Positions 3,744-61,922 of a stretch of DNA of 64,000 nt are shown here, piece by piece. Made by a program: the position numbers and the translations under genes. Under the pieces are notes generated by a model. It worked only from the letters and a program-made list of their open reading frames with translations, was not told where the DNA came from and ran no database searches. Origin of the DNA: an uncultured Pseudobdellovibrionaceae bacterium (GTDB taxonomy: Bacteria > Pseudomonadota > Alphaproteobacteria > Micavibrionales > Micavibrionaceae); the NCBI GenBank assembly GCA_964491785.1, contig CAZBGS010000001.1, forward strand, positions 232,661 through 296,660. The letters run 5' to 3'. The first letter of the stretch is position 1. Each line of letters begins with the position of its first letter.

Positions 3744-5126
3744 CTAATGGATCGGAGAGGCAAAAAAGTCGAAAAAGACCCACATGATCAATGACGCCAC
3801 GACGAGCGTTAAAAGCATTGCCGGAGTACCTTTCCTTAACCACAATCCCGGAGTGATCGCCAGATCCGGGTTCATCTCGTTTTTGGCAAGGCGCTCGGAA
3901 ATGGTAACTATGAACACATTGGCGGTTGAACCGATATGCGAGCCGTTACCGCCAAGGCCTACGCCTACCGCCAGCGACCACCAAAGCGGGGTGACGTTGA
4001 TGCCCTGAGCTTCCATGCTCAGGATTATCGGGATCATCGCCGCCGTGAAAGGTATATTGTCAATCAATGCCGACAGCACAGCAGCCACCCACATCAGCAC
4101 AATTGCCGCCATCAACAGGTCGCTTTCGACAAAGGGCCTGATGTGCTGTCCGATCCACATCAGGAACTGGCTGTGCTCCACTCCACCGACAAGTACGAAC
4201 AGCGATACGAAAAATACCAGCAGCGATAGCTCCACTTTTTCAAGGTAATGGTCGAGAACCAGCTTGCGTGAGATTATCACCAGCGCCGTCAGGCCAAGAA
4301 CCGCAACGACCCATGCTTCCCACTCAAGCGCCCTGTGGAAGATAAACAGCAGCACCATACAGGCAAGGATGGCAATAGCGGCAAACCAGGTGAAGGGATC
4401 CTGAAGCTGGACGTCTTCAGCGAATTCCATCTTTTCGGATTTTCCAGACAGTTCTTTTCTGAACAAGACTTTCAAACCAACTATTATCGATAACCAGGCG
4501 CAAAAAACGATCCCGCCCATACGCAGGAAGAAGGTGTTGAAATCGATGTCCGCCGCCGAGCCGATCATCAGGTTTGGCGGGTCGCCGACCAGGGTCGCAA
4601 CGCCGCCGGTATCGGACAGCAGGGCAGCCGCCAGCAGGCTAGGTATCGGGGATATTTTAAGAACCTGACAGATCAATATTATCAGCGGCCCGAAAATGAC
4701 GACCGTCGTCACGTTGTCAAGCAGCAGGGAGAAAACCGTAACGGCCGTACCCATCATGATCATCAGCGCAAGATGGTTCCCCCGGCTCAAGCGCGCTATC
4801 AGGTACGCCACGGCCTGGAAACCTCCGGTGGGTATCATGATGGAAACGATCGCCATCATCGCTCCAAGAAGAAATACCACGTTCCAGTCTATCGCCTCGA
4901 TTGCCAGTTCGGGACTGTAAAAACCGAAAATCTGGCCGCTAATCACCATCATGCCGGCGCCGACCATTGCAACCTTGGTACGATGCATATGGTGCACGCC
5001 TTCGGTAAAGATCGCAGCAAAGGTGAATACCAGTACCAATGCCGACACTATCATTGGAGTATTCATAACTAGTTCCGCAACTCCATCATGAGACACCATC
5101 GCTATTTCGCCATGTGCATTACTCAT
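3744..5126 (-). CDS. ArsB/NhaD-superfamily (SLC13-like) anion permease, copy B
   Basis: The 460-aa paralogue of 1673..3067 shares the GDPPNLMIGSA motif and is collinear along its whole length. Confidence 0.7.
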   Translation of the reverse strand: MSNAHGEIAMVSHDGVAELVMNTPMIVSALVLVFTFAAIFTEGVHHMHRTKVAMVGAGMMVISGQIFGFYSPELAIEAIDWNVVFLLGAMMAIVSIMIPTGGFQAVAYLIARLSRGNHLALMIMMGTAVTVFSLLLDNVTTVVIFGPLIILICQVLKISPIPSLLAAALLSDTGGVATLVGDPPNLMIGSAADIDFNTFFLRMGGIVFCAWLSIIVGLKVLFRKELSGKSEKMEFAEDVQLQDPFTWFAAIAILACMVLLFIFHRALEWEAWVVAVLGLTALVIISRKLVLDHYLEKVELSLLVFFVSLFVLVGGVEHSQFLMWIGQHIRPFVESDLLMAAIVLMWVAAVLSALIDNIPFTAAMIPIILSMEAQGINVTPLWWSLAVGVGLGGNGSHIGSTANVFIVTISERLAKNEMNPDLAITPGLWLRKGTPAMLLTLVVASLIMWVFFDFFASPIH

Positions 5127-45567: not shown

Positions 45568-45981
45568 ATGATAAAACTTTCCCGTCTGGCGTGCTACGGC
45601 GTTGTGATTCTTTCCGAGATGGCGGCGGGAGAAAAGCTTCGTACGGCTTCCGGTCTTTCTGAAAAAACCGGGCTTCCGGAACCGACCGTGGCAAAAATTC
45701 TAAAATTGCTGTCGAAGGGCGGCTTTGTTTCTTCGTCGAGAGGAATTAACGGCGGATACACTCTTATCAGGGAGCCCGTAAACATAAGCATTGCAGATAT
45801 TGTCACGGCGCTTGATGGCGAGATATCGCTTACAGGCTGCGTCGAAGGCAAGAGTGAAGAATGCCGCCTTAAAAGCGGATGCGCTCTGCATGGTTGCTGG
45901 GACGAGTTGAACGCTTCGGTGAGGAACGCCCTGTCACAGACCAACCTTGCCTGCATAGTATCTTCGAAAAAGAAGGTGTAA
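45568..45981 (+). CDS. Rrf2-family transcriptional regulator (IscR/RirA-like), likely suf operon regulator
   Basis: The HTH reads [19 protein letters not shown]...[21 protein letters not shown]. Three Cys residues ([15 protein letters not shown]) resemble Fe-S ligands, and the gene is immediately upstream of sufB. Confidence 0.8.
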
Positions 45982-47432
45982 TGGACAAAAAGGCGGAAAC
46001 AATCAGCCGGGTCGAGGAGCTGAAACGCTATTCAGCGGGATTTCAGACTACGATCGATTCCGTGCGCGCGCCAAAGGGACTGAATGAGGAAATTATCCGT
46101 TTTATCTCAAGCAGGAAGGAAGAACCTGAATGGCTGCTTGAGTGGCGGCTCAAGGCTTACAGGCACTGGCTGAAAATGCCGGAGCCGACATGGGCGAAGA
46201 TTAGCTTTCCGCCGATCGATTATCAGGACGCATATTATTATTCAGCCCCAAGATCATTTGAAAACCGTCCAAAATCTCTTGACGAGGTAGATCCCAAACT
46301 GCTTGAGACCTATGAGAAGCTCGGGATACCTCTACGAGAGAGAGAGATCCTTGCCGGAGTGGCGGTGGATGCTATTTTTGATTCAGTTTCCGTTGCCACC
46401 ACCTTCAAGGACAAGCTTCTGGAGGCGGGGGTTATCTTTTGTCCGATCAGCGAAGCGGTTCGTGATTACCCGCATCTTGTGCAGAAGTACATGGGTACGG
46501 TGGTGCCCTTTACCGATAACAAGCATGCCTGTCTCAATTCGGCTCTTTTTACCGACGGTTCTTTTGTTTACGTCCCCGAAGGCGTCCGTTGTCCGATGGA
46601 GCTGTCGTCGTATTTCCGGATCAACGAGATGAACACGGGCCAGCTGGAACGAACGCTGATTATCGCGGAAAAGGGCTCCTATGTAAGTTATCTGGAAGGC
46701 TGTACAGCTCCGATGCGCGACGAGCGGCAGTTGCATGCGGCCGTGGTCGAGCTGATCGCCCATGAAGATGCAGAGATCAAATACTCCACCGTCCAGAACT
46801 GGTATCCCGGCGACGAGCAGGGAAAAGGCGGGATATATAATTTCGTCACCAAGCGCGGTCATTGCGCGGGGGCGGGATCAAGAATCTCATGGACCCAGGT
46901 GGAGACCGGGTCGGCGATCACATGGAAATACCCGAGCTGCGTGCTGAAAGGCGACAATTCGTCATGTGAGTTCTATTCAGTGGCGATAACCAATAACTAC
47001 CAGCAGGCCGACACGGGAACCAAAATGATCCATATCGGCAAGAACACACGTTCCAAAATCATTTCCAAAGGCATATCCGCCGGACACGCAAACAACACCT
47101 ACAGAGGTCTGGTAAAGGTAATGCCGAATGCGGACGGCGCGCGAAATTTCACACAGTGTGACAGTTTGCTGATTGGCAACAATTGCGGAGCGCATACCGT
47201 GCCCTATATAGAATGCCGCAATCCCGGGGCTCAGCTGGAGCATGAGGCCACCACTTCGAGAATTTCGGAAGACCAGATGTTTTACTGCAGGCAAAGAGGC
47301 ATGGGCCCCGAGGAAACGGTCGCGCTGATAGTCAACGGCTTCTGCCGAGATGTACTTCAGCACTTACCCATGGAATTTGCCGTGGAGGCCCAGAAACTGG
47401 TAGGCATTTCCCTTGAAGGAAGCGTAGGATAG
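45981..47432 (+). CDS. sufB: Fe-S cluster assembly scaffold SufB
   Basis: The SufB/SufD family core is present. The start is taken at ATG 45981, overlapping the Rrf2 stop (TAATG). Confidence 0.85.
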
Positions 47433-47464
47433 ATCCGAAAAATAAAACAGGCAGGATCAATGCA

Positions 47465-47734
47465 ATGAAAAAGATTAATTTTACCAACGTGCTTTTCTGG
47501 TTTACCGGACTTATAGGGTTCGTAATCGGAGTGATTATCTTTTTGATCATTGTCGCAGGACTGGATACCACCAGCGGAGATCCGGTAAGAAGCGGGATGA
47601 TTCTTTTTGTTTCCTTCATCATGTGCTACGGCGTGGCCTTCGGAGGCTTGATTATTATGGCGCTAACGCAAATATCTTCTACGCTTCACAGGATAGAAAG
47701 ACTTTTGAAGGATCGGGAAGAAGCCGGCAAATGA
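47465..47734 (+). CDS. Small hydrophobic protein (89 aa, two predicted TM helices) inserted between sufB and sufC
   Basis: It is an ATG-initiated ORF (MKKINFTNVLFWFTGLIGFVIGVIIFLIIVAG...) that ends 4 nt into the sufC start. Confidence 0.4.
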   Translation: MKKINFTNVLFWFTGLIGFVIGVIIFLIIVAGLDTTSGDPVRSGMILFVSFIMCYGVAFGGLIIMALTQISSTLHRIERLLKDREEAGK

Positions 47735-48477
47735 TTGAAATAAATAATCTGCAGATTAACGTAGATGACAAGACAATACTCAAAGGAATAGATCTTTCCA
47801 TCAAGCCGGGAGAGATCCATGCGGTGATGGGGCCGAACGGTTCCGGGAAATCCACTCTTTCCTACTTTCTTGCAGGCAACGAAAAATATGAACTGGCCGG
47901 GGGGGACGTCACGCTCGACGGCGAGAGTATTATTGAACTTGAGCCTGAAGAAAGAGCTGCCAGGGGCCTGTTTCTGGCATTCCAGTATCCTGTTGAAATT
48001 CCTGGAGTTACTCTCAACAATTTCCTCAAAACCTCGATTAACGCGCTGCGCAAGGCAAGAGGGCTTGAGGAGATGGATACCCTCGAGTTTCTTAAGCTCA
48101 TGAAGAAAAGAGCAAAAGAAATCGGCATCAGCGACGAAATGCTGAAACGACCTCTTAACGTCGGCTTTTCGGGGGGCGAGAAGAAACGTAACGAAGCCTT
48201 GCAAATGTCGCTGCTGGAGCCAAGATTCGCCATTCTCGACGAAACGGACAGCGGACTGGACATCGATGCCTTGCGGATAGTGGCGGAGAGCGTAAACCGT
48301 CTGAGGTCGCCTGATCGCGCTTTTCTGATCATCACTCACTACCAGAGGCTTCTGGATTATGTCGTGCCGGATCACGTGCATATAATGGCGGACGGCAGGA
48401 TACGCAGATCCGGTGGCCCGGAACTGGCCAAGGAGCTTGAAGCCAAGGGCTATAGCGAGTTTCTGGAGGTCGCGTGA
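47731..48477 (+). CDS. sufC: Fe-S cluster assembly ATPase SufC
   Basis: It has Walker A GPNGSGKSTL, signature FSGGEKKRNE, and Walker B AILDETDSGLD. The start is at MIEINNLQ. Confidence 0.9.
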   Translation: MIEINNLQINVDDKTILKGIDLSIKPGEIHAVMGPNGSGKSTLSYFLAGNEKYELAGGDVTLDGESIIELEPEERAARGLFLAFQYPVEIPGVTLNNFLKTSINALRKARGLEEMDTLEFLKLMKKRAKEIGISDEMLKRPLNVGFSGGEKKRNEALQMSLLEPRFAILDETDSGLDIDALRIVAESVNRLRSPDRAFLIITHYQRLLDYVVPDHVHIMADGRIRRSGGPELAKELEAKGYSEFLEVA

Positions 48478-49688
48478 ATAACGTAACCGCTTTGATTAAA
48501 AACAATCCCGAAAAGAAAATATATGCCCCTGAAACGGCAAGAGCTTTCACGCAAGCAGCTGGAGAATTTGTTTTAAGGCATCCCGCAGATGCAAACATCG
48601 CCGCCATCAGGGCAAGAGGCCTGCGCCAGATCGAGCTTCAGGGCCTGCCTTCAAGAAGGCTTGAAAGCTGGAAGTATACCGACCCCGGCCCCGCCCTGAA
48701 AAATAACTATGAAGTAAAAACTGTTTCACCGACAGCCAGCCATCCCACGCAGCAAGTCAATCCGGCGTTTGTCGCCGTTTTATCTCAGGACTATCCTGGA
48801 CAGGAGGTCGACGGTCAGTTATGGGCGCTAAACCAGGCTTTTCTCGACAAGCCTTATATGATCGAGGTCGGTAAAGGCGAGGAACTGGAACTGGAATTAA
48901 TCTGGAATGCCGGAGAGAAAGACGTTTTTTCATCACCACGCACAGTAATTATTCTTAAAAAAGGGGCAAGGCTACACCTTACGGAGATAATTCAGTCCGG
49001 TGAAAAATGCTGGTTTAATCTGTGCACGCAAATAATTGTTGAATCGGGTGCAAAACTTTGCCATTTCCGGCTTCAGGGATGCGGGAATGATTCTTTTTGC
49101 ACTTTGAACACCATGCTCCGGATCGAGCGCGACGGGTGTTACGAGCACCATTTCATCAATCTCGGGGCAAGGATCGGGCGGAACCAGTATCATGTAAGTC
49201 TTGAGGGCGAGAATGCCTCGTGCCGTATCAACGGCGTTAATCTGCTGGACGGGGAAAGAGTCGGGGATGCGACGGTAACCGTACGCCACAAGGCCGAAAA
49301 CGGGTTTTCCATGCAGAATATCAGGTCTGTGCTGCTGGATCAGGCTCGCGGGGTTTTTCAGGGGGCGATACAGGTCGAGCGCGAGGCTCAGAAAACAAAC
49401 GCCCATCAGCTAAGCAAGGCGCTTATGCTGAGCGAAGGGGCGGAGATGGATACCAGGCCGGAACTGGAAATCTTCGCCGACGACGTCAAATGCTCTCACG
49501 GCGCAACCACGGGACAGATCGACAGGGAGGCGATGTTTTATCTGCGCTCCCGCGGCCTGAATGAGGCGCAGGCGAAGAAAATACTTATGTCGGCCTTTGT
49601 TTCCGAGCTTCTTGAGAGTATAGATCCTGAAAAAACAAAGGATCTGTTTATTGGCCGGGTGGAAGACTGGCTGGATCGGTCAGGGTAA
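48474..49688 (+). CDS. sufD: Fe-S cluster assembly protein SufD
   Basis: The C-terminal SufD beta-helix core is present and the gene lies between sufC and sufS. Confidence 0.8.
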   Translation: MNNVTALIKNNPEKKIYAPETARAFTQAAGEFVLRHPADANIAAIRARGLRQIELQGLPSRRLESWKYTDPGPALKNNYEVKTVSPTASHPTQQVNPAFVAVLSQDYPGQEVDGQLWALNQAFLDKPYMIEVGKGEELELELIWNAGEKDVFSSPRTVIILKKGARLHLTEIIQSGEKCWFNLCTQIIVESGAKLCHFRLQGCGNDSFCTLNTMLRIERDGCYEHHFINLGARIGRNQYHVSLEGENASCRINGVNLLDGERVGDATVTVRHKAENGFSMQNIRSVLLDQARGVFQGAIQVEREAQKTNAHQLSKALMLSEGAEMDTRPELEIFADDVKCSHGATTGQIDREAMFYLRSRGLNEAQAKKILMSAFVSELLESIDPEKTKDLFIGRVEDWLDRSG

Positions 49689-50917
49689 TGAGCAATAAGG
49701 GATTTGAGAGATACCGGCAAGATTTCCCGGTTCTTGGCACGCGGATGCACGATCAGCCGCTATGCTTTCTTGATTCGGCGGCAAGCTCGCAAAAGCCGGA
49801 ACGCGTGATAAATACCATGAACGCGGTGCTGCGGGGCGGATATGCCAATATCCATCGCGGCCTTTACGAGATTTCTCAGAACGTTACCCGGCAGTATGAA
49901 TTGGCGAGGGAGAAAGCCGCCAGCTTTATTGGCGCTTCCAAAGCCGGAGAAATAGTGTTTACCCGCAACTCGACAGAGGCGATCAACCTTGTGGCGCAAA
50001 GCTGGGGGCGGTGGTTTTTACGCGCCGGGGATGAGGTGATACTTACGGAAATGGAGCATCACGCCAATATCGTCCCCTGGCAATTGCTGCGCGAACAGAC
50101 GGGTATTGTTATCCGGGTTGTTCCGATCGAGGAGAACGGGACTCTCAGGCTGAAAGAGCTTGAAAACATGCTTTCGGAAAAGACCAGACTGGTCAGCTTC
50201 GTGCATGTTTCCAACGCACTCGGCACCATAAATCCGGCGGGCGAGATAATCAGGAAGGTGAAAGCGTTTAACGAATCGATCACGGTTATGGTCGACGGCT
50301 CGCAGGCGGCGGTGCATCTGCCGGTGGACGTTGCCGCGCTCGGTTGCGACTTTTATGTGTTCACCGGGCACAAGCTGTACGGGCCTACCGGCATAGGCGT
50401 CCTTTACGGCAGAAGCGAGTTGCTTGAAGAAATGCCGCCATATCAGGGGGGAGGCGACATGATAGAATCGGTAAGTTTCGAGAAGACGACGTACAAAGCC
50501 CCGCCCCAGCGTTTCGAGGCGGGAACACCGGCTATCGTGGAAGCTATCGGACTTGGGGCGGCCATAGATTACGTGAACGGCATCGGCATGGCTGCCATTA
50601 ACGAGCATGAACTTGAACTGCTGAGCTATGGCGATCAGGCGCTGCGGGATATCAGCGGGCTGAAGATCTACGGGAACGCGCCGGAGAAAGCGGCTATTTT
50701 TTCATTCACGATTGAGGGCATTCACGCGAGCGATATCGCGATGGTACTCGATCAGTGCGGTATCGCGGTCAGATCCGGGCACCACTGCTGCATGCCGCTG
50801 ATGCGAAAGCTGGGCGTCAGCGCGACCGTAAGGGCATCCATGGCCTTGTATTCTTCGGAAAATGATATAGATAGACTGGTTGAGGGTTTGCATAAGACAA
50901 TAAAAATGTTTTCATGA
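49688..50917 (+). CDS. sufS: Cysteine desulfurase SufS
   Basis: This class-V aminotransferase has a PLP-lysine region (VFTGHKLYGPTGIGVLYG) and an active Cys (RSGHHCCMP). Confidence 0.9.
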   Translation: MSNKGFERYRQDFPVLGTRMHDQPLCFLDSAASSQKPERVINTMNAVLRGGYANIHRGLYEISQNVTRQYELAREKAASFIGASKAGEIVFTRNSTEAINLVAQSWGRWFLRAGDEVILTEMEHHANIVPWQLLREQTGIVIRVVPIEENGTLRLKELENMLSEKTRLVSFVHVSNALGTINPAGEIIRKVKAFNESITVMVDGSQAAVHLPVDVAALGCDFYVFTGHKLYGPTGIGVLYGRSELLEEMPPYQGGGDMIESVSFEKTTYKAPPQRFEAGTPAIVEAIGLGAAIDYVNGIGMAAINEHELELLSYGDQALRDISGLKIYGNAPEKAAIFSFTIEGIHASDIAMVLDQCGIAVRSGHHCCMPLMRKLGVSATVRASMALYSSENDIDRLVEGLHKTIKMFS

Positions 50918-51342
50918 AAGCGATGCAGAACACGGCTGAGGTCAATCAGGTATCGGGATCGGATGATTGCGGCGAGTTTGACGAACTCGCCGAACCGCCT
51001 GTGGCGGACGTCCCCAGGTGCCATCCTCTTTGGCCGAAAATCGCGGCGGCGCTGCGCGAAGTCTACGATCCTGAAATTCCCGTCAATCTTTATGAACTCG
51101 GGCTGATTTATAAAGTCGAGATCAAGGATTCGCGTTTCGAGGGTAAATACGACGTTTATGTGGAAATGTCTTTGACTTCTCCGGGGTGCCCGGTGGCGCA
51201 GGAAATGCCGGGCATGATCCAGGACGCGATCATTCCGCTAGGGAATACCGGAGAGGTAATCGTCGAACTTATATGGGATCCGCCGTGGGAGCCCTCAATG
51301 ATGGCCGAGACCGCAAGACTGCAGCTAAATATGTTTTATTAA
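50914..51342 (+). CDS. DUF59/MIP18-family Fe-S assembly protein (SufT-like)
   Basis: It contains VYDPEIPVNLYELGLIY and SPGCP motifs, located at the end of the suf operon. Confidence 0.7.
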   Translation: MKAMQNTAEVNQVSGSDDCGEFDELAEPPVADVPRCHPLWPKIAAALREVYDPEIPVNLYELGLIYKVEIKDSRFEGKYDVYVEMSLTSPGCPVAQEMPGMIQDAIIPLGNTGEVIVELIWDPPWEPSMMAETARLQLNMFY

Positions 51343-51496: not shown

Positions 51497-53776
51497 TTGA
51501 TGAAAAAGATTCTGGACAGTTTCAGGGAAGACCCGTATGTGCCGGTTTTCTCGGTTACGCTGATGCTCAGCGCTTTTCTGCTTTTCTCCGTCCAGCCGCT
51601 CGTCAGCAAGATGATATTGCCGATACTTGGCGGCACGCCATCAGTCTGGAATACGGCGATGATGTTTTTCCAGATAACGTTGCTGGCCGGATATGCGTAT
51701 GCCCATATCACGACCCGGTTTCTTGGCGTGCGAATGCAGGCGGTGGCGCATATCGCTCTGATGATAGCTTTCGTTTTTATTCTTCCGATCGCCCTGCCCG
51801 CCGGATGGCTGCCGCCGGAGAACGCAAATCCGGCTTTCTGGCAGATCGGGGTTATGAGCATTACGGTCGGCGGGCCGTTCTTCGCGCTGGCAGCCACAGC
51901 TCCGATGCTTCAGCGGTGGTTTACAAGAACGCCCCATCCTTATGCCGGCAACCCTTACTTCCTGTACGCGGCCAGCAATCTCGGCAGCCTTGCGGCGCTT
52001 GTGGCTTATCCGATACTGATCGAGCCGCTGGCCGGACTGCAAACGCAGTCGATGAACTGGGCATCGGGATATCTTGCGTTAACGGGCCTCGTGCTCGTCT
52101 GCGCCGGAGCGGTATGGCATCAGAGCGCAGAAAATCAGGCGCAGGAAGGCAATGAGATTGTAAAAGAGCAGATATCGTGGTCGATAAAGGCGATGTGGCT
52201 GGTGTTGGCTTTCGTGCCTTCAAGCATGCTTCTGGGCGTTACGACCTTCATTACCACGGATATAGCTTCGGTGCCGCTGTTCTGGGTATTGCCGCTGGCG
52301 ATTTATGTCGGATCTTTCGTGATCGCGTTTTCAAGGCGGCAGATAGTCTCTTACGGTTTTGCCGTCTGGTTTCAGGGATTCTTTTTCGCTGGAGCGGTAT
52401 TTTTTATGTTCCATCAGCAGACAGCGAGTCTGGTTCTGATTGTTGTCCATCTTGCTCTACTCGCATGTACTTCGGTTATCTGCCACAAGGATCTGGCAAG
52501 ACTTCGCCCTTCGGCAGCCAGTCTTACTGAATTTTATCTGGTTATCGCGGCGGGCGGGGCTTTGGGGGGTATTTTCAATGCGATTTTAGCCCCAAGGCTG
52601 TTTCCTGCGCCAATAGAGTATCCGATCGCGCTTGCGGCGGCCGCCTGCCTCAGATATGCGGCGCTTCCCGGGAGCGGGATCGTCAGGGCTTATCAAAGAG
52701 CGGTCAGTGATTTTAAAGCCAGAAGGATCTTTGGCGATCCGGGCGGGATGGCAGGCATAGTTCTTCTGGCATCGGTTTGCCTTTTCGCGGCAATTTCCGG
52801 GGGAGCGTACGGCAGTTTCAAGCTGGCGGCAACGCTTGGCACAATTCTGCTGCTGCTGTTTTTATACCGCAGGTGGACATTTGCGGTTACGGCGGCGATT
52901 GCACTTGGCTGCGCGATGCTCAAGGTCTGGTTTATGGATCCAGACGTTATGCTGATGCAAAGGAATTTCTTCGGGGTGGTAAAGGTGATCGACCGCGAAT
53001 CTGAGGGAATGCGCGAACTGGTTCATGGAACCACGCTGCACGGCGCGCAGCCGCTTGCGGAGGAGCACAGGCTTACCCCGGTTACCTATTACAGCCCTTA
53101 TACGGCGGCGGGAGAGGTATTCGAGATATTCGAATCCTACCCTTCAGAAAGCCAGAAAGTCGCCGTCATCGGCCTCGGGGTCGGGGCCGTCAGTTGTTAC
53201 GGCGGCAGAGAGAGGCATTACGATTACTACGAGATCGATCCGGATATCGCAGGCATAGCGACAGATCCGGAACTTTTCACGTATTTGCGCGACTGCGGAA
53301 CGTCCAGCAAAATAATCATCGGCGACGGCAGAGTCAGGATTGCCGGGGCTGAAGACGGCGGCTATGACATGATATTGCTCGATGCTTTCAGTTCAGACAG
53401 CATTCCCGTTCACTTGCTGACTGTTGAGGCTTTTCTGCTTTACAGAAAAAAACTGGCGCCGGAGGGGCTGATCGTAACCAATATCTCGAACCGTTTTCTC
53501 GATCTGCGCCCTGTCGTAGCCACAAGCGCCAGGGACATCGGCATGACGGCCCTGTTCAAATTCAAGAATTCAGGAAGCCATATCAATTCAGGGCTGGAAT
53601 TCAGCGGCACGCTCTTCGGTGTGGTGACAGAGAACAAAGACATACTGCTGGATCTGTACCAGAGAGGCTGGAGAGAGGCGGATATAAAACCCGACCGCAA
53701 CTCCTGGACTGATGATTACGTCAATATACTCGGGGTCATGAACAGGGTCAAAGGCGAGAAAAGCAGCAAGAAGTGA
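51497..53776 (+). CDS. Fused polytopic membrane domain / spermidine-synthase-like domain protein
   Basis: The 759-aa protein has about 12 hydrophobic helices, then a C-terminal spermine/spermidine-synthase fold with a GxGxG motif (VIGLGVGAV), an acidic loop (DGGYDMILLDAFSSD), and PEGLIVTN. Confidence 0.6.
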   Translation: MMKKILDSFREDPYVPVFSVTLMLSAFLLFSVQPLVSKMILPILGGTPSVWNTAMMFFQITLLAGYAYAHITTRFLGVRMQAVAHIALMIAFVFILPIALPAGWLPPENANPAFWQIGVMSITVGGPFFALAATAPMLQRWFTRTPHPYAGNPYFLYAASNLGSLAALVAYPILIEPLAGLQTQSMNWASGYLALTGLVLVCAGAVWHQSAENQAQEGNEIVKEQISWSIKAMWLVLAFVPSSMLLGVTTFITTDIASVPLFWVLPLAIYVGSFVIAFSRRQIVSYGFAVWFQGFFFAGAVFFMFHQQTASLVLIVVHLALLACTSVICHKDLARLRPSAASLTEFYLVIAAGGALGGIFNAILAPRLFPAPIEYPIALAAAACLRYAALPGSGIVRAYQRAVSDFKARRIFGDPGGMAGIVLLASVCLFAAISGGAYGSFKLAATLGTILLLLFLYRRWTFAVTAAIALGCAMLKVWFMDPDVMLMQRNFFGVVKVIDRESEGMRELVHGTTLHGAQPLAEEHRLTPVTYYSPYTAAGEVFEIFESYPSESQKVAVIGLGVGAVSCYGGRERHYDYYEIDPDIAGIATDPELFTYLRDCGTSSKIIIGDGRVRIAGAEDGGYDMILLDAFSSDSIPVHLLTVEAFLLYRKKLAPEGLIVTNISNRFLDLRPVVATSARDIGMTALFKFKNSGSHINSGLEFSGTLFGVVTENKDILLDLYQRGWREADIKPDRNSWTDDYVNILGVMNRVKGEKSSKK

Positions 53777-53840: not shown

Positions 53841-55418
53841 TTATTTTGTAGAGAGGAATTTTACAGAGGGGTGTTTATCCTGTACGTCTCCAAGGTGCCA
53901 GGCGTTTCTGGCGATGAAGACGGGGTCTTCGTCGTGATCGAGGGCCATTGCGCTGCGGTTTTCGTCGATAAGCTTCTTGAGCGCAGCCGGATTGTCGGAT
54001 TTCGCCCATCTTGCCGTGTAAAGGCTGGTTTCTTCGAAATGAACGGGGATATTAAACTCCGTACGTATCCTGTCGGCCAGAACGTCGAACTGCAAGGGGC
54101 CGACCACGCCGACGATCCAGTTGGAATCGGCCATCGGCTTGAATACCCGGGCACCGCCTTCTTCGGCAATCTGGGTCAGCGCGGCGCCTAAATGCTTGGC
54201 TTTCATGGGGTCGTCGGGGCGTACGCGTTGCAGATATTCCGGCGCAAAGCTTGGAATGCCTGTAAAATGCAGATCCTCGCCTTCGGTAAGCGTGTCGCCT
54301 ATCCGCAGGTTGCCATGGCTCTGAATGCCGATGATGTCGCCGGGATAGGCTTCTTCGGCCATTTCACGCTCCTGGGCCATAAAAAACTGGGGAGAGTGGA
54401 TATTGATGGTTTTCCCCAGACGTACGTGTTTAAGCTTCATGTTGCGCCTGAACTCGCCGGAGCAGATCCGGGTAAAAGCGATACGGTCGCGGTGCTTGGG
54501 ATCCATGTTTGCCTGAATTTTAAAAACAAAGGCGGTAAGTTTTTTTTCATCTGGAGAGATTTCCCTCTCCAGGGTCTTCAAAGGCCCTGGGGACGGGGCA
54601 AACTCTTCTATTCCCCGCAGCAGTTCGCGCACGCCAAAGTTATTGATGGCGCTGCCGAAGAAAACCGGGGTCATGTGCCCCTCGCGGAAAGAGTTCAAAT
54701 CGAAAGGCTTGCAAAGCGCTTCCGCCATTTCGACTTCCTCGCGCAGGGTTGAAAGCCTGTCTCCGGGAAGCATTTGCGAAAGCACCGGATCGTCAAGACC
54801 CCGGCAGGCGACACCTTCCTGAACCGTTTCGCCCTTGCCGCGTTCAAACAGGTTCAATTCCTTATGAAACAGGTCGTAACAACCAAGGAAATCGCGGCCC
54901 ATGCCGACAGGCCAGCTGGCCGGGGTAACGTCGAGCGCTAGCTTTTGCTCGATCTCGTCAAGCAAATCGACAGGCTCCATCCCGTCGCGATCCATTTTAT
55001 TGATGAATGTAAGGATAGGCACGTCGCGCAGGCGGCAAACCTCGAAGAGTTTAAGAGTCTGCGCCTCTATGCCCTTGGCGGCATCGAGAACCATAATGGC
55101 GCTGTCGATGGCGGTAAGCGTACGATAGGTATCCTCGCTAAAATCCTCGTGTCCGGGGGTGTCGAGGAGATTGTAAACAATGCCGCCATGCTCGAAAGTC
55201 ATGACGCTGGAGGCGACAGATATGCCTCTTTCCTGCTCTACCTTCATCCAGTCGGATCTGGCCCGGCGGCGGTCACCTCTGGCCTTGACCATTCCCGCCA
55301 TCTGGATCGCACCTCCGAAAAGAAGCAGTTTTTCGGTAAGGGTGGTTTTGCCCGCGTCAGGGTGCGATATGACGGCAAATGTCCGCCGCTGCCGGATCTT
55401 TTCGTTTAAATTGCTCAC
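53841..55418 (-). CDS. prfC: Peptide chain release factor 3
   Basis: The GTPase motifs are AVISHPDAGKTTLTEKLL, DTPGHEDF and NKMD. Confidence 0.9.
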   Translation of the reverse strand: MSNLNEKIRQRRTFAVISHPDAGKTTLTEKLLLFGGAIQMAGMVKARGDRRRARSDWMKVEQERGISVASSVMTFEHGGIVYNLLDTPGHEDFSEDTYRTLTAIDSAIMVLDAAKGIEAQTLKLFEVCRLRDVPILTFINKMDRDGMEPVDLLDEIEQKLALDVTPASWPVGMGRDFLGCYDLFHKELNLFERGKGETVQEGVACRGLDDPVLSQMLPGDRLSTLREEVEMAEALCKPFDLNSFREGHMTPVFFGSAINNFGVRELLRGIEEFAPSPGPLKTLEREISPDEKKLTAFVFKIQANMDPKHRDRIAFTRICSGEFRRNMKLKHVRLGKTINIHSPQFFMAQEREMAEEAYPGDIIGIQSHGNLRIGDTLTEGEDLHFTGIPSFAPEYLQRVRPDDPMKAKHLGAALTQIAEEGGARVFKPMADSNWIVGVVGPLQFDVLADRIRTEFNIPVHFEETSLYTARWAKSDNPAALKKLIDENRSAMALDHDEDPVFIARNAWHLGDVQDKHPSVKFLSTK

Positions 55419-55423
55419 TATTG

Positions 55424-55831
55424 CTACCGCCGTTTTTTCTTTTTCCCGTACAGCTCCAGCCTGTGATCGACGAGATCAAAACCCATTCTGGCCGCTATTT
55501 TCTCCTTCAGAGCCTCAAGCTCGTCGTCATGAAACTCTATTACTTCGCCGGATTCAAGATCAATAAGATGATCGTGATGGTCGGTATTGATTTCATATCT
55601 TGAAAAATTCTCCCTGAAGTCATGGCGGACGACGATATCAAGTTCGTCCAGCAGGTTCATGGTACGGTACACGGTCGCCATACTAATAGCCGGATTAAGG
55701 CTGCGCGCACGGTCGTAGACCATTTCCACCGACGGGTGGTCTTCCGAATCGCTGATAACTTTCAGGATAGTGCGCCGCTGATCTGTCATTTTGAGACCGG
55801 CTTTGCTGCATTTTTCCTCGATAGTATTCAT
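55424..55831 (-). CDS. Fur-family metalloregulator domain (possible separately initiated cistron at internal ATG 55829-55831)
   Basis: The 135-aa segment MNTIEEKCSKAGLKMTDQRRTILKVI...ATVYRTMNLLDELDIVVRH...HHDHLIDLESGEVIEFHDDELE aligns with E. coli Fur (LKKAGLKVTLPRLKILEVL...ATVYRVLNQF...HHHDHLICLDCGKVIEF). It lacks the CxxC pair. Confidence 0.6.
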   Translation of the reverse strand: MNTIEEKCSKAGLKMTDQRRTILKVISDSEDHPSVEMVYDRARSLNPAISMATVYRTMNLLDELDIVVRHDFRENFSRYEINTDHHDHLIDLESGEVIEFHDDELEALKEKIAARMGFDLVDHRLELYGKKKKRR

Positions 55832-57442
55832 AAATTCCACTGGCAGGTTGAAGCTTACAGGGGTTTTAAGAAAGTTACTATTTCCTTCAGCGCCAATCAA
55901 ATCCTGACTTGTGCTGAGGTTTTGACCTTTTTTAAGAGTTCTGAAGGGAGGGAAGATAATTTTGACAGTAGTTCCAAGACCAAGCTCGGACTGAAGATCG
56001 AGAGATCCTCCATGCAGTTCCGCCATTGCCTTGGCAAGCGGAAGGCCAAGTCCGGTGCCCTGATAACCCTTGACGTTGACAGGCTCGCTGATCTGGCCGA
56101 AGGGTTCCATAGCTTCCTGAATGCGGTCTTTGGGAATGCCTATGCCCTTGTCGATGACGGCAAACTCCAGCGAACCGTTTTTCAGTCGCCTGGCTCTAAT
56201 AATGACCGCCTGTCCGCTATTGGAAAATTTGACAGCGTTGGTTACCAGGTTTATCAGAATCTGCCGCACCAGACGCATGTCGGCAAAGAGCGGTGGAATG
56301 CCGTCCTCAACTTCCTCGACAATTGTCAGGCCGCTGGTAAAGGCTCTTGAGGCCATCATTCTTGAGACAGTCGCAACAAGGTCAGAAACGGAAATCCAGC
56401 TTTCATCCAGCTCTACCCTGCCGGCCTCGATCTTGGACATATCAAGTACTTCGTTAATGATTTCCAGAAGATGGCATGCACTAAGGTGAATGTCCCCAAG
56501 ATACTCCTTGTACTTGTCATTGCCAAGAACTCCAAAAGTCTCGTTTTTCATCATTTCGGAAAAACCTATGATCGCGTTCAAAGGCGTACGCAATTCGTGT
56601 GACATATTGGCAAGGAAAGTGGACTTGGCGTGATTTGCCATATCCGCCTGCTCCTTGGCAAGCCTTAAGGAGACTTCCATCTGCTTGCGAAGAGTGATGT
56701 CCATGACTGTTGTTACCTGAAAGCGTCTGTTCTGGCTAAGTTCAAGAGTCGCCGTAGTGAACAGAGCATTGGCGACTGAACCATCCTTGCGCTCTATTCT
56801 CATTTCACCAGAGCTGCGGTATCCGCTACGGATGAATTCATCGTGGTTGATTTGCATGGTTTCCCGGTCTTCGAGCGGGGAGATATCGGCAAAATCCATA
56901 CCGATTAGTTCTTCCCGTCCCCAGCCATACATGCGAATGAAACTTTCATTAACCTTAACCACACGGCGCGTTTCGTCTGAAACCAGGATACCGACCTCGC
57001 TAACATCGAATATGGATGACAGAAGGGATATCGCGTCATCCCGTTCACGCTGTAGCATGGAATGGTCGGCGCTGTCGGCATGGGCGATAACGTCCATATA
57101 ATCGACGTTACCATCATCGTCGACCACAGGGTTGATAATGAAGCCGTGGACGCGTAGACCGCCGGGAAATCCTGGCAAAGACTGCATGCTTACAGGCTTT
57201 TTCTGTTTGATGCAGACTTCAAAGGAATGACGAAAATGCCTTGAATTATCGGCGTCCAGAAACTCATCCAGCTTTTGACCAAGAAGATTTTTTTGGCCTC
57301 TGTCAAAGTATTGCAAAGCTTTTTTGTTGGCGCTGATGAGGAAATAGCCGCCAAGCCCATCCGGCCTGACGAGAAATCTCGGCACAGGCATTAGATGGAA
57401 GAGCGTTCTGTAATCAACCAACCCTTCACTCATCGCGTTCAT
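55424..57442 (-). CDS. Cytoplasmic two-PAS sensor histidine kinase with in-frame C-terminal Fur-family domain (672-aa continuous ORF)
   Basis: The HK part has an H-box (MSHELRTPLNAIIGFSEMM) and a G2 box (GTGLGLPLAKAMAELHGG), with no TM segment. The same frame then continues without a stop codon into a complete Fur-like domain at 55424..55831. Confidence 0.65.
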   Translation of the reverse strand: MNAMSEGLVDYRTLFHLMPVPRFLVRPDGLGGYFLISANKKALQYFDRGQKNLLGQKLDEFLDADNSRHFRHSFEVCIKQKKPVSMQSLPGFPGGLRVHGFIINPVVDDDGNVDYMDVIAHADSADHSMLQRERDDAISLLSSIFDVSEVGILVSDETRRVVKVNESFIRMYGWGREELIGMDFADISPLEDRETMQINHDEFIRSGYRSSGEMRIERKDGSVANALFTTATLELSQNRRFQVTTVMDITLRKQMEVSLRLAKEQADMANHAKSTFLANMSHELRTPLNAIIGFSEMMKNETFGVLGNDKYKEYLGDIHLSACHLLEIINEVLDMSKIEAGRVELDESWISVSDLVATVSRMMASRAFTSGLTIVEEVEDGIPPLFADMRLVRQILINLVTNAVKFSNSGQAVIIRARRLKNGSLEFAVIDKGIGIPKDRIQEAMEPFGQISEPVNVKGYQGTGLGLPLAKAMAELHGGSLDLQSELGLGTTVKIIFPPFRTLKKGQNLSTSQDLIGAEGNSNFLKTPVSFNLPVEFMNTIEEKCSKAGLKMTDQRRTILKVISDSEDHPSVEMVYDRARSLNPAISMATVYRTMNLLDELDIVVRHDFRENFSRYEINTDHHDHLIDLESGEVIEFHDDELEALKEKIAARMGFDLVDHRLELYGKKKKRR

Positions 57443-57448
57443 TAACAG

Positions 57449-58339
57449 CTATGTTTCATTTTTCATATTTCTAAGGTATCTTTTAAGCGGGCTTACCTCA
57501 TAGTACTGAAGTGATACGTCCTTTTCAGATACATACTGGTCGATGTCGTCACGAAGATATACGATAAGCTGCTTAACATCATCACCCTCCCCGGGTTCGG
57601 CGGTAACATATGAGAGGGTGGTTTGACCGCCGGCCTCCTTTAGCATGCGCCTCAGCCTGTTTACCGCGGCCATACCGCCTCTGATATCCGCATGCTTCAG
57701 GCAAAGCACGAATTCTCCATTATCGATGTAATAAGCATCGTCATAGGTACGCACGCATTTTCTGACGATATCGGCAACCGAGCTTATTATTTCCTCCAGA
57801 TGCTCATGGGAAATGCCATGCGAAAACTCGCCAAAACCATCAATTCTGGCAAGGACAACGCAAAACGGCTTGCCTCTTCTGGCCCGACGCTCCATTTCCA
57901 GTTCCAGATCGCGGAACATCGCTTCAGATGTACGCAACCCGGTAAGAGTATCTATTCCACTACCGGCAAGAATGTTGTCCTTTTCCAGCCTGCGTATGTG
58001 AGCAAGGAAGGATTCAGAGAGGTTGATCAGGTTGTCCATCAAGGAAATATCGGGCCTGCCTTCACTCGCACTGCCTGCTTCAATTAGGTTGTCAGCGGCC
58101 TGATACATCTCTTTTGAAATAGATAGGATGATATCCACCATCCTTTCGTGAACCCCGTTATCCCGCAGTTCTTCCATCAGGTTGCCGGCGCCGGAGGGGG
58201 GGCTGGCAGGGACAGACCTGCTTTCCCCGGGATAGAAACTCTTGCGCATGATACGGCCAAACCAATCGCTATGCTCATCGAGTATTAGCGTTATGGCCCT
58301 GATCATCTTTTCCTTTTTTTCCTTTTCTTTTTCGTCCAT
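57449..58339 (-). CDS. GGDEF-domain protein with degenerate active site (DNGEF in place of GG[D/E]EF)
   Basis: The domain contains DTLTGLRT, the I-site-region RxxD-like RIDGFGEF, and YYIDNGEFVLCL at the A-site. The ~150-aa N-terminus begins with a KEKEKKEK tract and is not a receiver domain. The gene sits 7 bp upstream of the HK-Fur ORF. Confidence 0.65.
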   Translation of the reverse strand: MDEKEKEKKEKMIRAITLILDEHSDWFGRIMRKSFYPGESRSVPASPPSGAGNLMEELRDNGVHERMVDIILSISKEMYQAADNLIEAGSASEGRPDISLMDNLINLSESFLAHIRRLEKDNILAGSGIDTLTGLRTSEAMFRDLELEMERRARRGKPFCVVLARIDGFGEFSHGISHEHLEEIISSVADIVRKCVRTYDDAYYIDNGEFVLCLKHADIRGGMAAVNRLRRMLKEAGGQTTLSYVTAEPGEGDDVKQLIVYLRDDIDQYVSEKDVSLQYYEVSPLKRYLRNMKNET

Positions 58340-58424
58340 ATGATGAATCCAGCAGAAAATGACAGGTTTTATAATACTACGATTAAAAGCGTCCGGTAAA
58401 GGAAGGGCGCATAATTAGTGAGAT

Positions 58425-59624
58425 TTAAAGAAGATTGTCGTTAAGCCATTCTTTTTCGAGCTGCCTTAGGGTTCCCTGCCTGATGGCCGATCTGATCTCC
58501 TGCATCAGGGTGGAAATGACGCCGATATTATGGCGGGTGAGAATTGTGCCCGCTGTGCCCGGTTCCGCCTTGAGCAGATGGTGAAGCGAAGCTTTGCTAT
58601 AGGTACGGGAAACTTCCGTGGGCATGCGAGAATCAAGGGGGGTAAAATCATCGCGAAACCTGGAATTTCTAAGATTAATCGAGCCTTTCGGATCGCCTTT
58701 GATCAGGGCGGTTCCATGCCTTGCCATGCGGGTGACCGCTACGCAGTCAAAGGTGTCTATTCCAAGGCGTACGAATTCGAAGACATCCTTTATTCTGCCA
58801 ATTCCAAGCAGGTGCACAGGACGATCAGGGTGAATGTGTGGAACGCACATTGATACTACTTCGCGCATTTGCTGCTCGTCCTTGCCAAGACAGCCGCCGA
58901 TGGCGGTGCCGAAAAAGTCCCTGTCCCTGGTGTATTCGCAGCACTCGCGGCGAAGTTTCTCGTATACGCCGCCCTGCACCACGCCATACAGGGCCTGACG
59001 TCCGTCGTTGCCGCGCCTGAATTCTTCAAGAGAACGGTCTTCCCAGCGGTGTGTACGTTCCATTGAACGAGCGGTGTACTCTTCACTGTCATGAAACGCG
59101 GTAAGCTCGTCGAAAGCCACGATCAGGTCGGCGCCGATGCGGCGCTGGGTGTCGATGGAAACCTCGGGAGAGATAAAGAGCTTGCTGCCGTCCAGGTGGT
59201 TACGGAAGGTGACTCCATCCTCGTCTATCGAGAGAAGCAGGTTTGGCAAGTCTGTCTGCCTGCGTCTGCCCTTGATTTCATCAGCTACTCCTCCGTATTG
59301 CAGCGAGAAGATCTGGTAGCCGCCGCTGTCGGTAAGCATCGGGCCTTCCCAGGTGGTGAATTCGTGAAGACCCCCGGCCTTTTCGATGATCTCGGCCCCC
59401 GGCTGGACGAGAAGATGATAGGTGTTCGAAAGAATGATCTGCGCCCCGGCTTCCTTAACCTCTTTCGCGGCAAGTCCCTTGATAGTGCCTTTTGTGGCGC
59501 AGAAGATATAATTAGGAGTTTCGATGGTTCCGTGCGGAGTTTCGAGCAGTCCGGCACGCGCGTGCGTGCCTTCCGTCTCATCCCTTTTCGTTACCTGAAA
59601 GCTGAAATTCGGGTATAGCGACAC
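58425..59624 (-). CDS. tgt: Queuine tRNA-ribosyltransferase
   Basis: The N-terminal motif HARAGLLETPHGTIETP is followed by a TIM barrel and a C-terminal zinc site. The start is taken at GTG 59622-59624 because the longer ATG ORF would overlap rpmB. Confidence 0.8.
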   Translation of the reverse strand: MSLYPNFSFQVTKRDETEGTHARAGLLETPHGTIETPNYIFCATKGTIKGLAAKEVKEAGAQIILSNTYHLLVQPGAEIIEKAGGLHEFTTWEGPMLTDSGGYQIFSLQYGGVADEIKGRRRQTDLPNLLLSIDEDGVTFRNHLDGSKLFISPEVSIDTQRRIGADLIVAFDELTAFHDSEEYTARSMERTHRWEDRSLEEFRRGNDGRQALYGVVQGGVYEKLRRECCEYTRDRDFFGTAIGGCLGKDEQQMREVVSMCVPHIHPDRPVHLLGIGRIKDVFEFVRLGIDTFDCVAVTRMARHGTALIKGDPKGSINLRNSRFRDDFTPLDSRMPTEVSRTYSKASLHHLLKAEPGTAGTILTRHNIGVISTLMQEIRSAIRQGTLRQLEKEWLNDNLL

Positions 59625-59632
59625 AGGCCGGT

Positions 59633-59923
59633 TCAGCCCTTCGCGGCCATAACCCTGGCTACCTGTTCCCTGACTTTGCGCAGTCCGGCGTCGATCTTGC
59701 TGGCAGGCGTGGAAGCGAGCCATGCGTCAAGGCCGCCCTTATGATCTATAGTGCGGAGACCATTGGTTGATACGCGAAGCCGAACCATGCGTCCCAGAGC
59801 CTCGCTGTAAAGGCTGGTGTCCTGGATATTCGGCAGGAACCTGCGGCGGGTTTTGTTATTGGCATGCGATACATTATTGCCCGAAAGCACGCCTTTTCCC
59901 GTAACCATGCAACGACGACTCAT
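59633..59923 (-). CDS. rpmB: 50S ribosomal protein L28
   Basis: The sequence [32 protein letters not shown] is the L28 signature. The start is the internal Met of the ORF-track entry. Confidence 0.85.
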
Positions 59924-59976
59924 TGTCTCGCCCTTTCCTTCTATAATCAATCTAATAGCTTGACTTAAAAATTTGA

Positions 59977-61323
59977 ATGCCGAACTTATGCCAGTACGGT
60001 TTGAAAAGTCAAGCGGAAAGGGCTTTTACACCTATGAATCAGGAAAATCAACTGTCTTTAACGTCGGGTGTGGGTTCCGGAACCCTCGTTTATATGCGCT
60101 GGCTGGCCGTCGCGGGCCAGAGCACGGCGATTCTGGGGGCCTATCTCCTTCTGGGAATCGACCTGCCACTTGCCGCCACTCTAGCGGTTACAGGTATTTC
60201 CGCTGCTTTGAATCTCTTCATACATTTCAAAGGACTTGAACTGGTTTCGAATAAAAGGATTTTCGGGCTTTTATGCTTTGACACGCTTCAGATCGCTTCT
60301 TTGCTATTGCTTGCCGGCGGCCTTGAAAACCCGTTTTCGCTATTTTTGCTGGCTCCGGCAGCGGTCGGAGCGGCGCTGCTGGATGGCAGGCACACGGTGT
60401 TTTTGCTTGGGGTATTCGCGTTGACCCTGCCGGTTTTATACATTTTTGCGATGCCGCTGGAATGGCCGGGTAATTCATATGAGTTCCCTAAGGAATACAA
60501 GCCTGGAATGCTGACTGCCCTGTTACTGTCCTGTGGGTTCACTGCTTTTTACATCAGAAGGACGCTTTTTGAAGCCGTCAGGCTTAACAGGGCGCTCAGC
60601 GCGATGCGTCTTGCCCTGGCCAGGCAGGAACAAGACTCCAGACTGGGAATTCTTGCAGCTGCCGCAACACATGAGTTAGGCAGTCCCTTAAATACTATCA
60701 GTCTTATAGCGGGAGATATTAAGAAAGAAATTGAACAAGACTCGCCTTTGAGGGAAGACGTCGAGTTGCTCGCAAGTCAAATCGGCAAATGCAAGTCAAT
60801 TCTTATGGAATTTTCCAGCCGCCCGCGGGAAATAACTAATAGCTTTGAACAGCCCATACCACTCGAAGTGCTTCTTGCAGAGATATCAGATCAGTACAAG
60901 ATGTTATTTCCTTCTGTTAAAGTTATTGTCGAACAAGGCAAGGCTTCCCCGGCACCGCCGCCTGAAGTGATCAAGACGGCGGAGCTGAGCTACGGGCTTG
61001 GCAATATCATAAAAAATGCCTTTGAGTTCGCAGGTGAAGAAATCAGGCTTGTTTATTTTTGGGATGAAAATTATATTTTTATTGTAATAGAAGATGATGG
61101 CCCGGGTTTTTCAAGTAAGGCTTTAAGCAATATCGGCAGTCCCTACTTTTCAGAACGAAAAAGTGCTGGCAAAAATATGGGACTGGGTATATTTATCGCG
61201 CGAACGTTACTTGAGCGGACAGGCGCGATCCTTAGCTTCAGTAATCGATGTAACGGCAAAGGCGCAAGAATCGCTGTGCAATGGCCGCGCAATGTTATTG
61301 ATAGCGGCGGTAAACGTTTTTAG
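59977..61323 (+). CDS. regB: Membrane redox-sensing histidine kinase RegB/PrrB/ActS family
   Basis: It has six predicted TM helices, the H-box [14 protein letters not shown] characteristic of the RegB family, and the HATPase motif [12 protein letters not shown]. The real start may be MNQENQ (60034). Confidence 0.7.
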
Positions 61324-61355
61324 TCTGAAACGGGGAAAATCTGTATAAAACCGAG

Positions 61356-61922
61356 ATGACACAAAAATCAAAGACTTCGACAAAGGGCAGGCTTCTGATC
61401 ATCGACGACGATGCGGTTTTGGCAGATCGTCTTGATAAATCGCTGGCAAAGCGCGGATTTCTGACTGAAACCGCGCTTTCCAACAGTGAGGCCATGGAAA
61501 AAATCAGTTTGAATGCCCCTGATTTCGCTTTGATAGATCTGAGAATCGGTCATGAGAGCGGCCTTGCTCTGATCGATGCGTTAAGGAAAGCCTCGCCCCA
61601 GTGCCGGATCGTGATGCTTACGGCCTTTGGCAATATCGCCACGGCGGTTGCGGCGGTAAAATCGGGGGCGATCGATTATCTAGCGAAACCGGCGGACGCC
61701 GATGCTATCGAGAACGCGCTGCTTCAGGAGGGTGAACATTCGCTTCCCCCGCCGCCCGCCGAACCGATGACCGCGGAAAGGGTACGATGGGAGCATATCC
61801 AGAGAATTTACGAGCAGTGCGAACGAAATATTTCGGAAACCGCCCGCAGGCTGAAGATGCACAGGCGGACATTGCAGAGAATCCTCAGTAAATACGCGCC
61901 CAGGGACAATCCGGAAGAGTAG
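61356..61922 (+). CDS. regA: Response regulator RegA/PrrA/ActR family (receiver + Fis-type HTH)
   Basis: The receiver domain begins LLIIDDD and the C-terminal HTH (NISETARRLKMHRRTLQRIL) matches the highly conserved RegA C-terminus. Confidence 0.75.
   Translation: MTQKSKTSTKGRLLIIDDDAVLADRLDKSLAKRGFLTETALSNSEAMEKISLNAPDFALIDLRIGHESGLALIDALRKASPQCRIVMLTAFGNIATAVAAVKSGAIDYLAKPADADAIENALLQEGEHSLPPPPAEPMTAERVRWEHIQRIYEQCERNISETARRLKMHRRTLQRILSKYAPRDNPEE

Follow-up and report, generated by a model that had tools for sequence, protein, structure and literature searches.

Cytoplasmic sensor kinases with the domain order PAS, HisKA and HATPase_c are found in Micavibrio-like bacteria, where a GGDEF-domain gene lies upstream of the kinase gene and fur and prfC lie downstream of it. 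Fur itself is known from solved chains such as 5FD5/5FD6 and 4RAY/4RAZ, and these, like all relatives considered here, are stand-alone proteins of about 135–145 aa. Fusions between two such genes can arise by stop loss or frameshift ("Rosetta-stone"-type fusions) when adjacent same-strand genes are separated by a short spacer and a single indel joins them. The locus described here lies in a stretch of 64,000 nucleotides (the window) from an uncultured Pseudobdellovibrionaceae bacterium (assembly GCA_964491785.1, contig CAZBGS010000001.1, positions 232,661 to 296,660 of the forward strand), and resembles each of these systems in turn: its kinase shares 53–81% identity over residues 1–505 with those of Micavibrio-like bacteria as well as their domain order and gene neighbourhood, its Fur matches the solved chains over the full length, and the two are read as one protein across a short spacer. 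Unlike the solved Fur chains, the window Fur has no preceding stop and is readable as a C-terminal domain of the kinase; unlike Rosetta-stone fusions, which are conserved across several genomes, the fusion in the window is a singleton. The fused open reading frame (ORF) is, on balance, probably an accident of one indel that displaced the stop between two conserved neighbours.

The fused ORF occupies 55424..57442 on the reverse strand (stop codon included), to which the coordinates of the kinase, fur, prfC, GGDEF, tRNA and transglycosylase features given below also refer, and consists of the kinase, a former spacer and fur. According to both the ORF list and the codon table it is a single ATG-to-stop frame of 672 aa, running from 57442 to 55424 without an internal stop, and Pfam places in it, in this order, PAS, HisKA, HATPase_c and FUR domains. 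In the codon table the kinase frame ...GLGTTVKIIFPPFRTLKKGQNLSTSQDLIGAEGNSNFLKTPVSFNLPVEF passes directly into MNTIEEKCSKAGLKMTDQRR..., the junction reading ...IIFPPFRTLKKGQNLSTSQDLIGAEGNSNFLKTPVSFNLPVEF followed by MNTIEEKCSKAGLKMTDQRR..., and codon table and Pfam thus agree with the initial annotation of this DNA, which had described a kinase frame continuous into a complete Fur. The observation of one PAS-HisKA-HATPase_c-FUR reading frame in the assembly is confirmed. Met538, encoded by an internal ATG at 55831–55829, opens the Fur part; the junction-spanning tryptic peptide of the predicted fusion is TPVSFNLPVEFMNTIEEK, and the N-terminal peptide of Fur is (M)NTIEEK.

The relatives keep these two genes apart. 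When the whole ORF was searched against 5.8 billion clustered proteins, the best 119 relatives of the kinase were 497–536 aa long, with 58–81% identity, and were all without the Fur profile PF01475, while the fused protein of the window formed a singleton cluster and was the sole fused one recovered. Any fused orthologue would outscore these 119 relatives, and the database therefore holds none. The relatives are labelled by their sources as Micavibrio, Pseudobdellovibrionaceae or Alphaproteobacteria metagenome-assembled genomes (MAGs), the proteins being named "PAS domain-containing sensor histidine kinase" or, by JGI, PleC. GTDB species representatives, when scanned, yielded 43 loci; the relative loci carry numbers from L001 to L047, and 41 distinct ones hold both genes; the kinase stop and the fur start were placed in each by tblastn and frame walking. 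The kinase stop is present, with kinase and then fur as separate genes, in all 41, the spacer between them measuring 3–244 bp, mostly 30–80 bp, and fur standing in any of the three frames relative to the kinase. In the four closest relatives the order is GGDEF, sometimes UPRTase, then kinase, fur and prfC, with kinase and fur called separately. Orthologues that consistently encode two genes had been named in the initial annotation, together with a stop codon revealed by resequencing, as evidence against a fusion, and the first of these two is what was found in 41 of 41 loci and 119 of 119 proteins.

The stop codon of the relatives can still be read in the window. The letters AAA TAG TAA at 55883–55875 lie off the kinase frame by one base and at the position of the relatives' stop, and three-frame translation marks TAG and then TAA (55875..55880) as the ancestral kinase stop. 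Kinase tails in the relatives extend 3–32 aa past an FPxxR motif where this motif is found (36 of 41 loci), often ending in ...[GS]AE at the stop, whereas the window copy adds 17 + 135 residues. The variable C-terminal tail of the window kinase (aa 499–520, ...FRTLKKGQNLSTSQDLIGAEG; 55883..55948) keeps the ancestral frame as far as ...GAE: the sequence here is GGC GCT GAA GGAAA TAG TAA C, and the encoded ...DLIGAE matches the relatives' ...[GS]AE ending, which runs GGC GCG GAG TAA in L028 and GCC GAA TAG TAC in L045. With this ending shared, the kinase frame is ancestral up to ...DLIGAE, and the frameshift therefore falls within the five nucleotides GGAAA (55881..55885), and came about either by deletion of one A from an original GGAAAA or by insertion of all five behind GAA (E519). 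Both changes move the frame in the same direction. Adding one A produces a 521-aa kinase ending in ...IGAEGK with a double stop, and removing 5 nt produces GCT GAA TAG TAA C and a 519-aa ancestor that resembles the endings of L045 and L028; in terms of the deposited letters 55885–55878, which are GGAAATAG, the alternative states are GGAAAATAG or GAATAG. Alignment with the DNA of the four closest loci gives a mean column identity of 53%, the tail and spacer being too diverged for the exact ancestor to be read from it. The spacing of a promoter-like pair that spans the site, discussed below, is 17 nt as it stands; putting back the A would make it 18 nt, and taking out GGAAA 12 nt. This tips the balance slightly towards the 1-nt deletion and away from the 5-nt insertion, two events that are not separable with certainty.

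Between this site and fur lies a bridge of 17 codons (NSNFLKTPVSFNLPVEF; 55832..55882), made up of the former stop and the kinase–fur spacer and aligned with non-coding spacer in the relatives. Its GC content is 0.37, and 0.41 at third codon positions, whereas the coding sequence on either side has 0.50 and 0.56; the bridge values come from 17 codons only. Shuffling its 51 nt left the frame free of stops in 34% of cases, so that an open bridge needs no selection. Single mutations simulated at the kinase stop of the 41 relatives were read into fur in four by substitution, in three by a −1 shift and in six by a +1 shift, from which it follows that fusion is an easy accident in this arrangement of genes. 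The linker has the look of a captured spacer, containing or bordering the old TAG TAA, a promoter-like −10 hexamer, a Shine-Dalgarno-like GGAA and the orthologous ATG, and in this, as in other stop-loss fusions, the old stop is visible out of frame and the start codon and ribosome-binding site (RBS) of the downstream gene are retained.

The mechanism that best accounts for the locus would begin with two ordinary neighbours, a PAS kinase and fur, which in a Micavibrio-like bacterium stood within the conserved order GGDEF–kinase–fur–prfC. One small indel before the kinase stop, most simply the loss of an A from GGAAAA, would have shifted the frame by one base in a single genome, so that the old TAG TAA is bypassed and the ribosome would cross the 46-nt former spacer, which has no stop in that frame, and enter fur in frame. 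Transcription of fur would continue from a promoter in the 3' end of the kinase gene, with translation from Met538, and the 75-kDa fusion would come only from transcripts begun ahead of the kinase, as a minor and unselected by-product. The DNA itself probably carries the indel, which would then not be an error of assembly.

An assembly error would leave the same letters if the true sequence were GGAAAA TAG TAA, encoding a 521-aa kinase and a separate fur, and the consensus had dropped one A. One base added in a short A-run suffices to bring the kinase back to its usual length, closed by a double stop; the fused protein, a singleton, is known from one contig; every relative has two genes; and one-off fusions of adjacent same-strand genes in drafts and MAGs are often indel errors. 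The A-run, however, has merely 3–4 bases and is not a typical error hotspot, and an error would be very unlikely if the change was an insertion of 5 nt. The tails and spacers of almost all relatives differ by indels, which gives a real indel a high prior. The rest of the 64-kb window, which is 91% coding with long intact ORFs, also contains no broken genes: no other frameshift was found in it, and the adjacent or overlapping same-strand ORF pairs that were tested (PhoH/YbeY, TruB/S15, PNPase/GDPD, DUF192 and NDUFS4) are distinct complete genes. Besides NCBI and ENA, Logan, in which public reads were assembled separately, lists a protein identical to the 672-aa product, the neighbouring genes carrying the same source labels, and among 15 billion proteins there was no exact match to a repaired kinase of 521 or 519 aa or to a stand-alone Fur of this organism. 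An assembly error is accordingly regarded as unlikely, though far from negligible. Several points nonetheless weigh against an accident in the DNA itself and against the events proposed to follow from it. The organism is represented by one contig of 554,992 bp, its proteins are all singletons, and a consensus error at the A-run is possible; no contig of the same species was found, a scan of JGI metagenomes reaching at most 56% identity and the GTDB representatives lacking the window's genome. Logan would derive from the same reads, the independence of its record being indicated by the source label only, and a single sequence says nothing on selection at the bridge. The promoter and RBS proposed for fur are consensus matches only, and weak ones in the window (7/12 positions and GGAA).

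The Fur part has the features of an ordinary gene. The fur gene itself (55424..55831; 135 codons beginning with Met538, and a stop) is covered by PF01475 over its full length, the FUR domain (aa 547–665) matching profile positions 1–121 of 121 with an E-value of 8.1e-38 and 129.7 bits against a cut-off of 23.1. Met538 aligns with the fur start codon in 41 of 41 relatives, across which Fur is conserved end to end, length and N-terminus being common to the window Fur and the stand-alone ones; the suggestion that the internal ATG could start Fur alone is thus plausible. Among solved structures, 5FD5/5FD6 (E 5e-43) and 4RAY/4RAZ (E 4e-42), deposited as ferric uptake regulation or Fur-family proteins and representing rhizobial Mur and Magnetospirillum Fur, respectively, match window residues 538–672 over the full length. 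Fur residues 2–133 align with residues 5–137 of 5FD5, which suggests that the winged-helix and dimerisation domains are collinear with those of solved Fur. In known Fur structures the regulatory metal ligands are HHDH, the Glu of IEF and the His of DHR. The motifs HHDH, VIEF and DHRLELYG are kept in the window, in the 41 relatives (with HHDH or HHHH) and in 5FD5, and alignment with both supports the metal-site motifs HHDH and EF picked out in the initial annotation.

The same annotation had described the structural CxxC as replaced by D..S. The cysteines are indeed absent, but this is not peculiar to the fusion, since the stand-alone relatives lack them likewise: the window Fur, each of the 41 relatives and the closest solved chain shown are all devoid of CxxC motifs, and the four solved entries resemble the window Fur in having HHDHLIDL, VIEF and DHRLELYG without CxxC. 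A Zn(Cys)4 site formed by two CxxC motifs is present in many Fur proteins and is not universal. Absence of CxxC as a special feature of the fusion was therefore rejected, the absence being family-wide and extending to the closest solved Fur structures; judged from the alignments, it is a lineage trait unrelated to the fusion and no bar to membership of the Fur family. None of the NCBIfam equivalogs for Fur, PerR, Irr and Zur was reached, the best being PRK09462 (Fur) with 104 against 146 bits and the others far lower. By its sequence the Fur half is an ordinary cysteine-less fur gene of alphaproteobacterial type, for which metal-dependent binding to Fur boxes is predicted only, with either Fe (as in Fur) or Mn (as in Mur) as the possible metal.

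Separate expression of this gene is suggested by signals at its 5' side. A promoter-like pair, TTGATT (55900–55895) and TAACTT (55877–55872) separated by 17 nt, lies inside the 3' end of the kinase as a consensus match (55872..55900), with 7 of 12 hexamer positions matched and 40 nt before the fur ATG, and is weaker than its counterparts in the relatives. In at least 20 of these a script scan found as best −35/−10 pair a T[GA]GACA or TTGAxx and, 17 nt further on, a hexamer that opens with the kinase stop codon. This −10-like hexamer, which is TA[AG]TAT in 15 of the 41 relatives, lies 27–66 nt ahead of the fur ATG. Pairs at the kinase stop are seen, for example, in L012 (~4514–4542), L010, L021–L025, L027, L033 and L043. 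A fur promoter embedded at this place would explain why the otherwise variable kinase tail has a conserved end, ...[MI]DIAxSAE before the stop. A generic promoter and terminator scan of the region listed nothing in front of fur that passed its thresholds, and the pair was seen by the comparative scan only. A weak Shine-Dalgarno-like GGAA (55835..55838) precedes the fur ATG by 3 nt, and the purine-rich motifs of the closest relatives are similarly weak. Free Fur is probably still made from the predicted promoter, GGAA and Met538.

A different reading of the fused ORF is that of a functional, selected kinase–Fur protein in which the PAS signal or the conformation of the kinase controls or tethers Fur. 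The ORF is intact, both its halves are full-length and conserved, and the kinase–fur adjacency kept in 41 loci hints at a functional link. Histidine kinases and Fur are both normally homodimers, and the 39-aa linker would make a dimer of the fused protein sterically conceivable. That linker, however, is recognisable as an old spacer by its old stop, RBS-like motif, start codon and intergenic composition, a single cheap mutation suffices to open it, and no such fusion occurs among the orthologues, among the best 150 matches to the junction segment or in the literature. A selected fusion, which only the kept adjacency favours, is thus considered very improbable, and the combination of a real indel with a 75-kDa protein that is made and has a regulatory effect is an even slimmer prospect; such an effect could be exerted, for instance, by a Fur dimer tethered to a PAS kinase, its occupancy changing with the redox, oxygen or haem state that PAS senses, or by mixed dimers with free Fur. 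The proposal that PAS signals are linked to metal-dependent DNA binding in a new, evolved architecture is not supported, given that orthologues are separate and that the bridge is former intergenic DNA.

The accompanying remark that no kinase–Fur architecture was known does hold, none having been found among the best 119 protein relatives, the 41 loci, the best 150 matches of the junction search or the literature searched. The junction search was an exhaustive phmmer run against 1.84 billion representatives with a segment that reaches from the last part of HATPase_c across the linker into Fur; it gave 23,956 matches, and no kinase domain was present in the best 150, which were inspected, though distant fusions could rank lower. 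The longest of these 150 has 465 aa. Those with two matching stretches that were examined proved to be tandem FUR-FUR proteins (P0151, P0128, P0131 and P0125, 197–331 aa). One more protein (P0137) is GNAT-FUR, and the remaining four that were scanned consist of Fur extended by unannotated sequence. The FUR-FUR and GNAT-FUR proteins resemble the window in having a fused FUR and differ from it in lacking HisKA and HATPase_c, and may themselves be stop-loss artefacts. A literature search likewise returned no kinase–Fur fusion.

Kinase and fur are both known kinds of gene, and the fusion is at most a singleton variant. The case calls for caution, as a striking "new domain architecture" seen in one assembly is reduced, by a quick comparison with relatives, to a pair of textbook genes that a single frameshift at a stop codon has joined. 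Provided that the indel is real, the locus would offer a snapshot of the birth of a Rosetta-stone fusion, with the spacer captured as linker and the downstream promoter, RBS and start still intact, as well as a natural experiment on how Fur tolerates an N-terminal extension of 537 residues. The more reusable biology is the placing of fur directly behind a PAS kinase in the Micavibrio-like relatives examined, with a likely fur promoter overlapping the kinase stop. From sequence comparison, this conserved pairing (41 loci, 53–81% kinase identity) may mean that the two are functionally connected, and were the fusion regulatory, the adjacency would be a pre-existing functional link that became hard-wired in the window's lineage.

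The kinase half is as complete as the Fur half. A PAS sensor domain (aa 140–253; 56684..57025) is matched by PF13426, PF08448 and PF00989, each above its cut-off. It is followed by the HisKA dimerisation and phospho-acceptor domain (aa 272–341; 56420..56629) with the H-box MSHELRTPLN (PF00512, 3.8e-21, 75.3 bits against a cut-off of 26.9) and by the HATPase_c catalytic domain (aa 389–498; 55949..56278; PF02518, 1.5e-23, 83.7 bits against a cut-off of 26.4). The H-box MSHELRTPLNAIIGFSE and the G2-box region QGTGLGLPLAKAM are invariant among the aligned relatives. The initial annotation had spoken of a two-PAS kinase, of which one PAS lies above the Pfam threshold and the second is not established, the N-terminal 130 aa giving a sub-threshold match only (to PF24820, with 17 bits where the cut-off is 28.1). 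The JGI label "cell cycle sensor histidine kinase PleC" on relatives is an automatic name. PleC-like equivalogs in NCBIfam stay far below their cut-offs (PdhS 223 against 2000, DivJ 197 against 1000) and match the catalytic core only, by which sequence measure an identity of the kinase as PleC, DivJ or PdhS is not shown. No receiver domain is present in the fused ORF or the adjoining genes, the nearest receiver gene (61356–61922) adjoining another kinase. That gene belongs to a second, divergent two-component pair (59977–61922, forward strand), composed of a 448-aa membrane kinase and a 188-aa regulator with a receiver and a Fis-type helix-turn-helix; the membrane kinase has HATPase_c as its only Pfam match, its positional counterpart in L002 is a kinase that matches 6TM_PilS, and nothing ties the pair to the PAS kinase.

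The genes on either side of the fused ORF, within 53841–59950, follow the order of the relatives. The prfC gene (release factor 3; 53841..55418) carries GTP_EFTU, EF-G_D2 and RF3_C domains by Pfam and has the same place in L001, L002 and L004. Its GTG start at 55418 lies 5 bp past the stop of the fused ORF, the distance given in the initial annotation. On the other side, 6 bp upstream of the kinase, stands a GGDEF-domain gene (57449..58339; PF00990), in the same place in L001–L004. A UPRTase gene separates GGDEF and kinase in L001 and L002 and is absent there in the window, L003 and L004. Adjoining prfC, a 759-aa ORF on the forward strand (51497–53776) is hydrophobic in its N-terminal half and matches nothing in Pfam at E<=1e-4, and L002 has on the same side of prfC a 752-aa gene without a recorded Pfam match.

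About 4 kb from fur, an operon for suf Fe-S cluster assembly extends over 45568–51342 on the forward strand, comprising SufB (45879–47432), an ABC ATPase (47623–48477), a SufD-like protein (48474–49688), a class-V aminotransferase (49688–50917) and a FeS_assembly_P protein (50914–51342). It is preceded by a 137-aa ORF (45568–45981, forward strand), which overlaps the listed SufB start and which, by eye only, we take to resemble an Rrf2/IscR-type regulator; SufB itself probably begins downstream of its listed start. The sole Rfam matches in the window are two tRNA genes (348–420 and 1070–1143), the second of which is overlapped by a 119-aa ORF (844–1203) that has no Pfam match and is probably not a gene. 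The tRNA-guanine transglycosylase ORF (58425–59723) is listed with 432 aa, its Pfam TGT match begins at residue 55 and the L002 orthologue has 393 aa; its first ~40 residues are probably spurious, a result of starting the ORF at whichever ATG comes first behind a stop.

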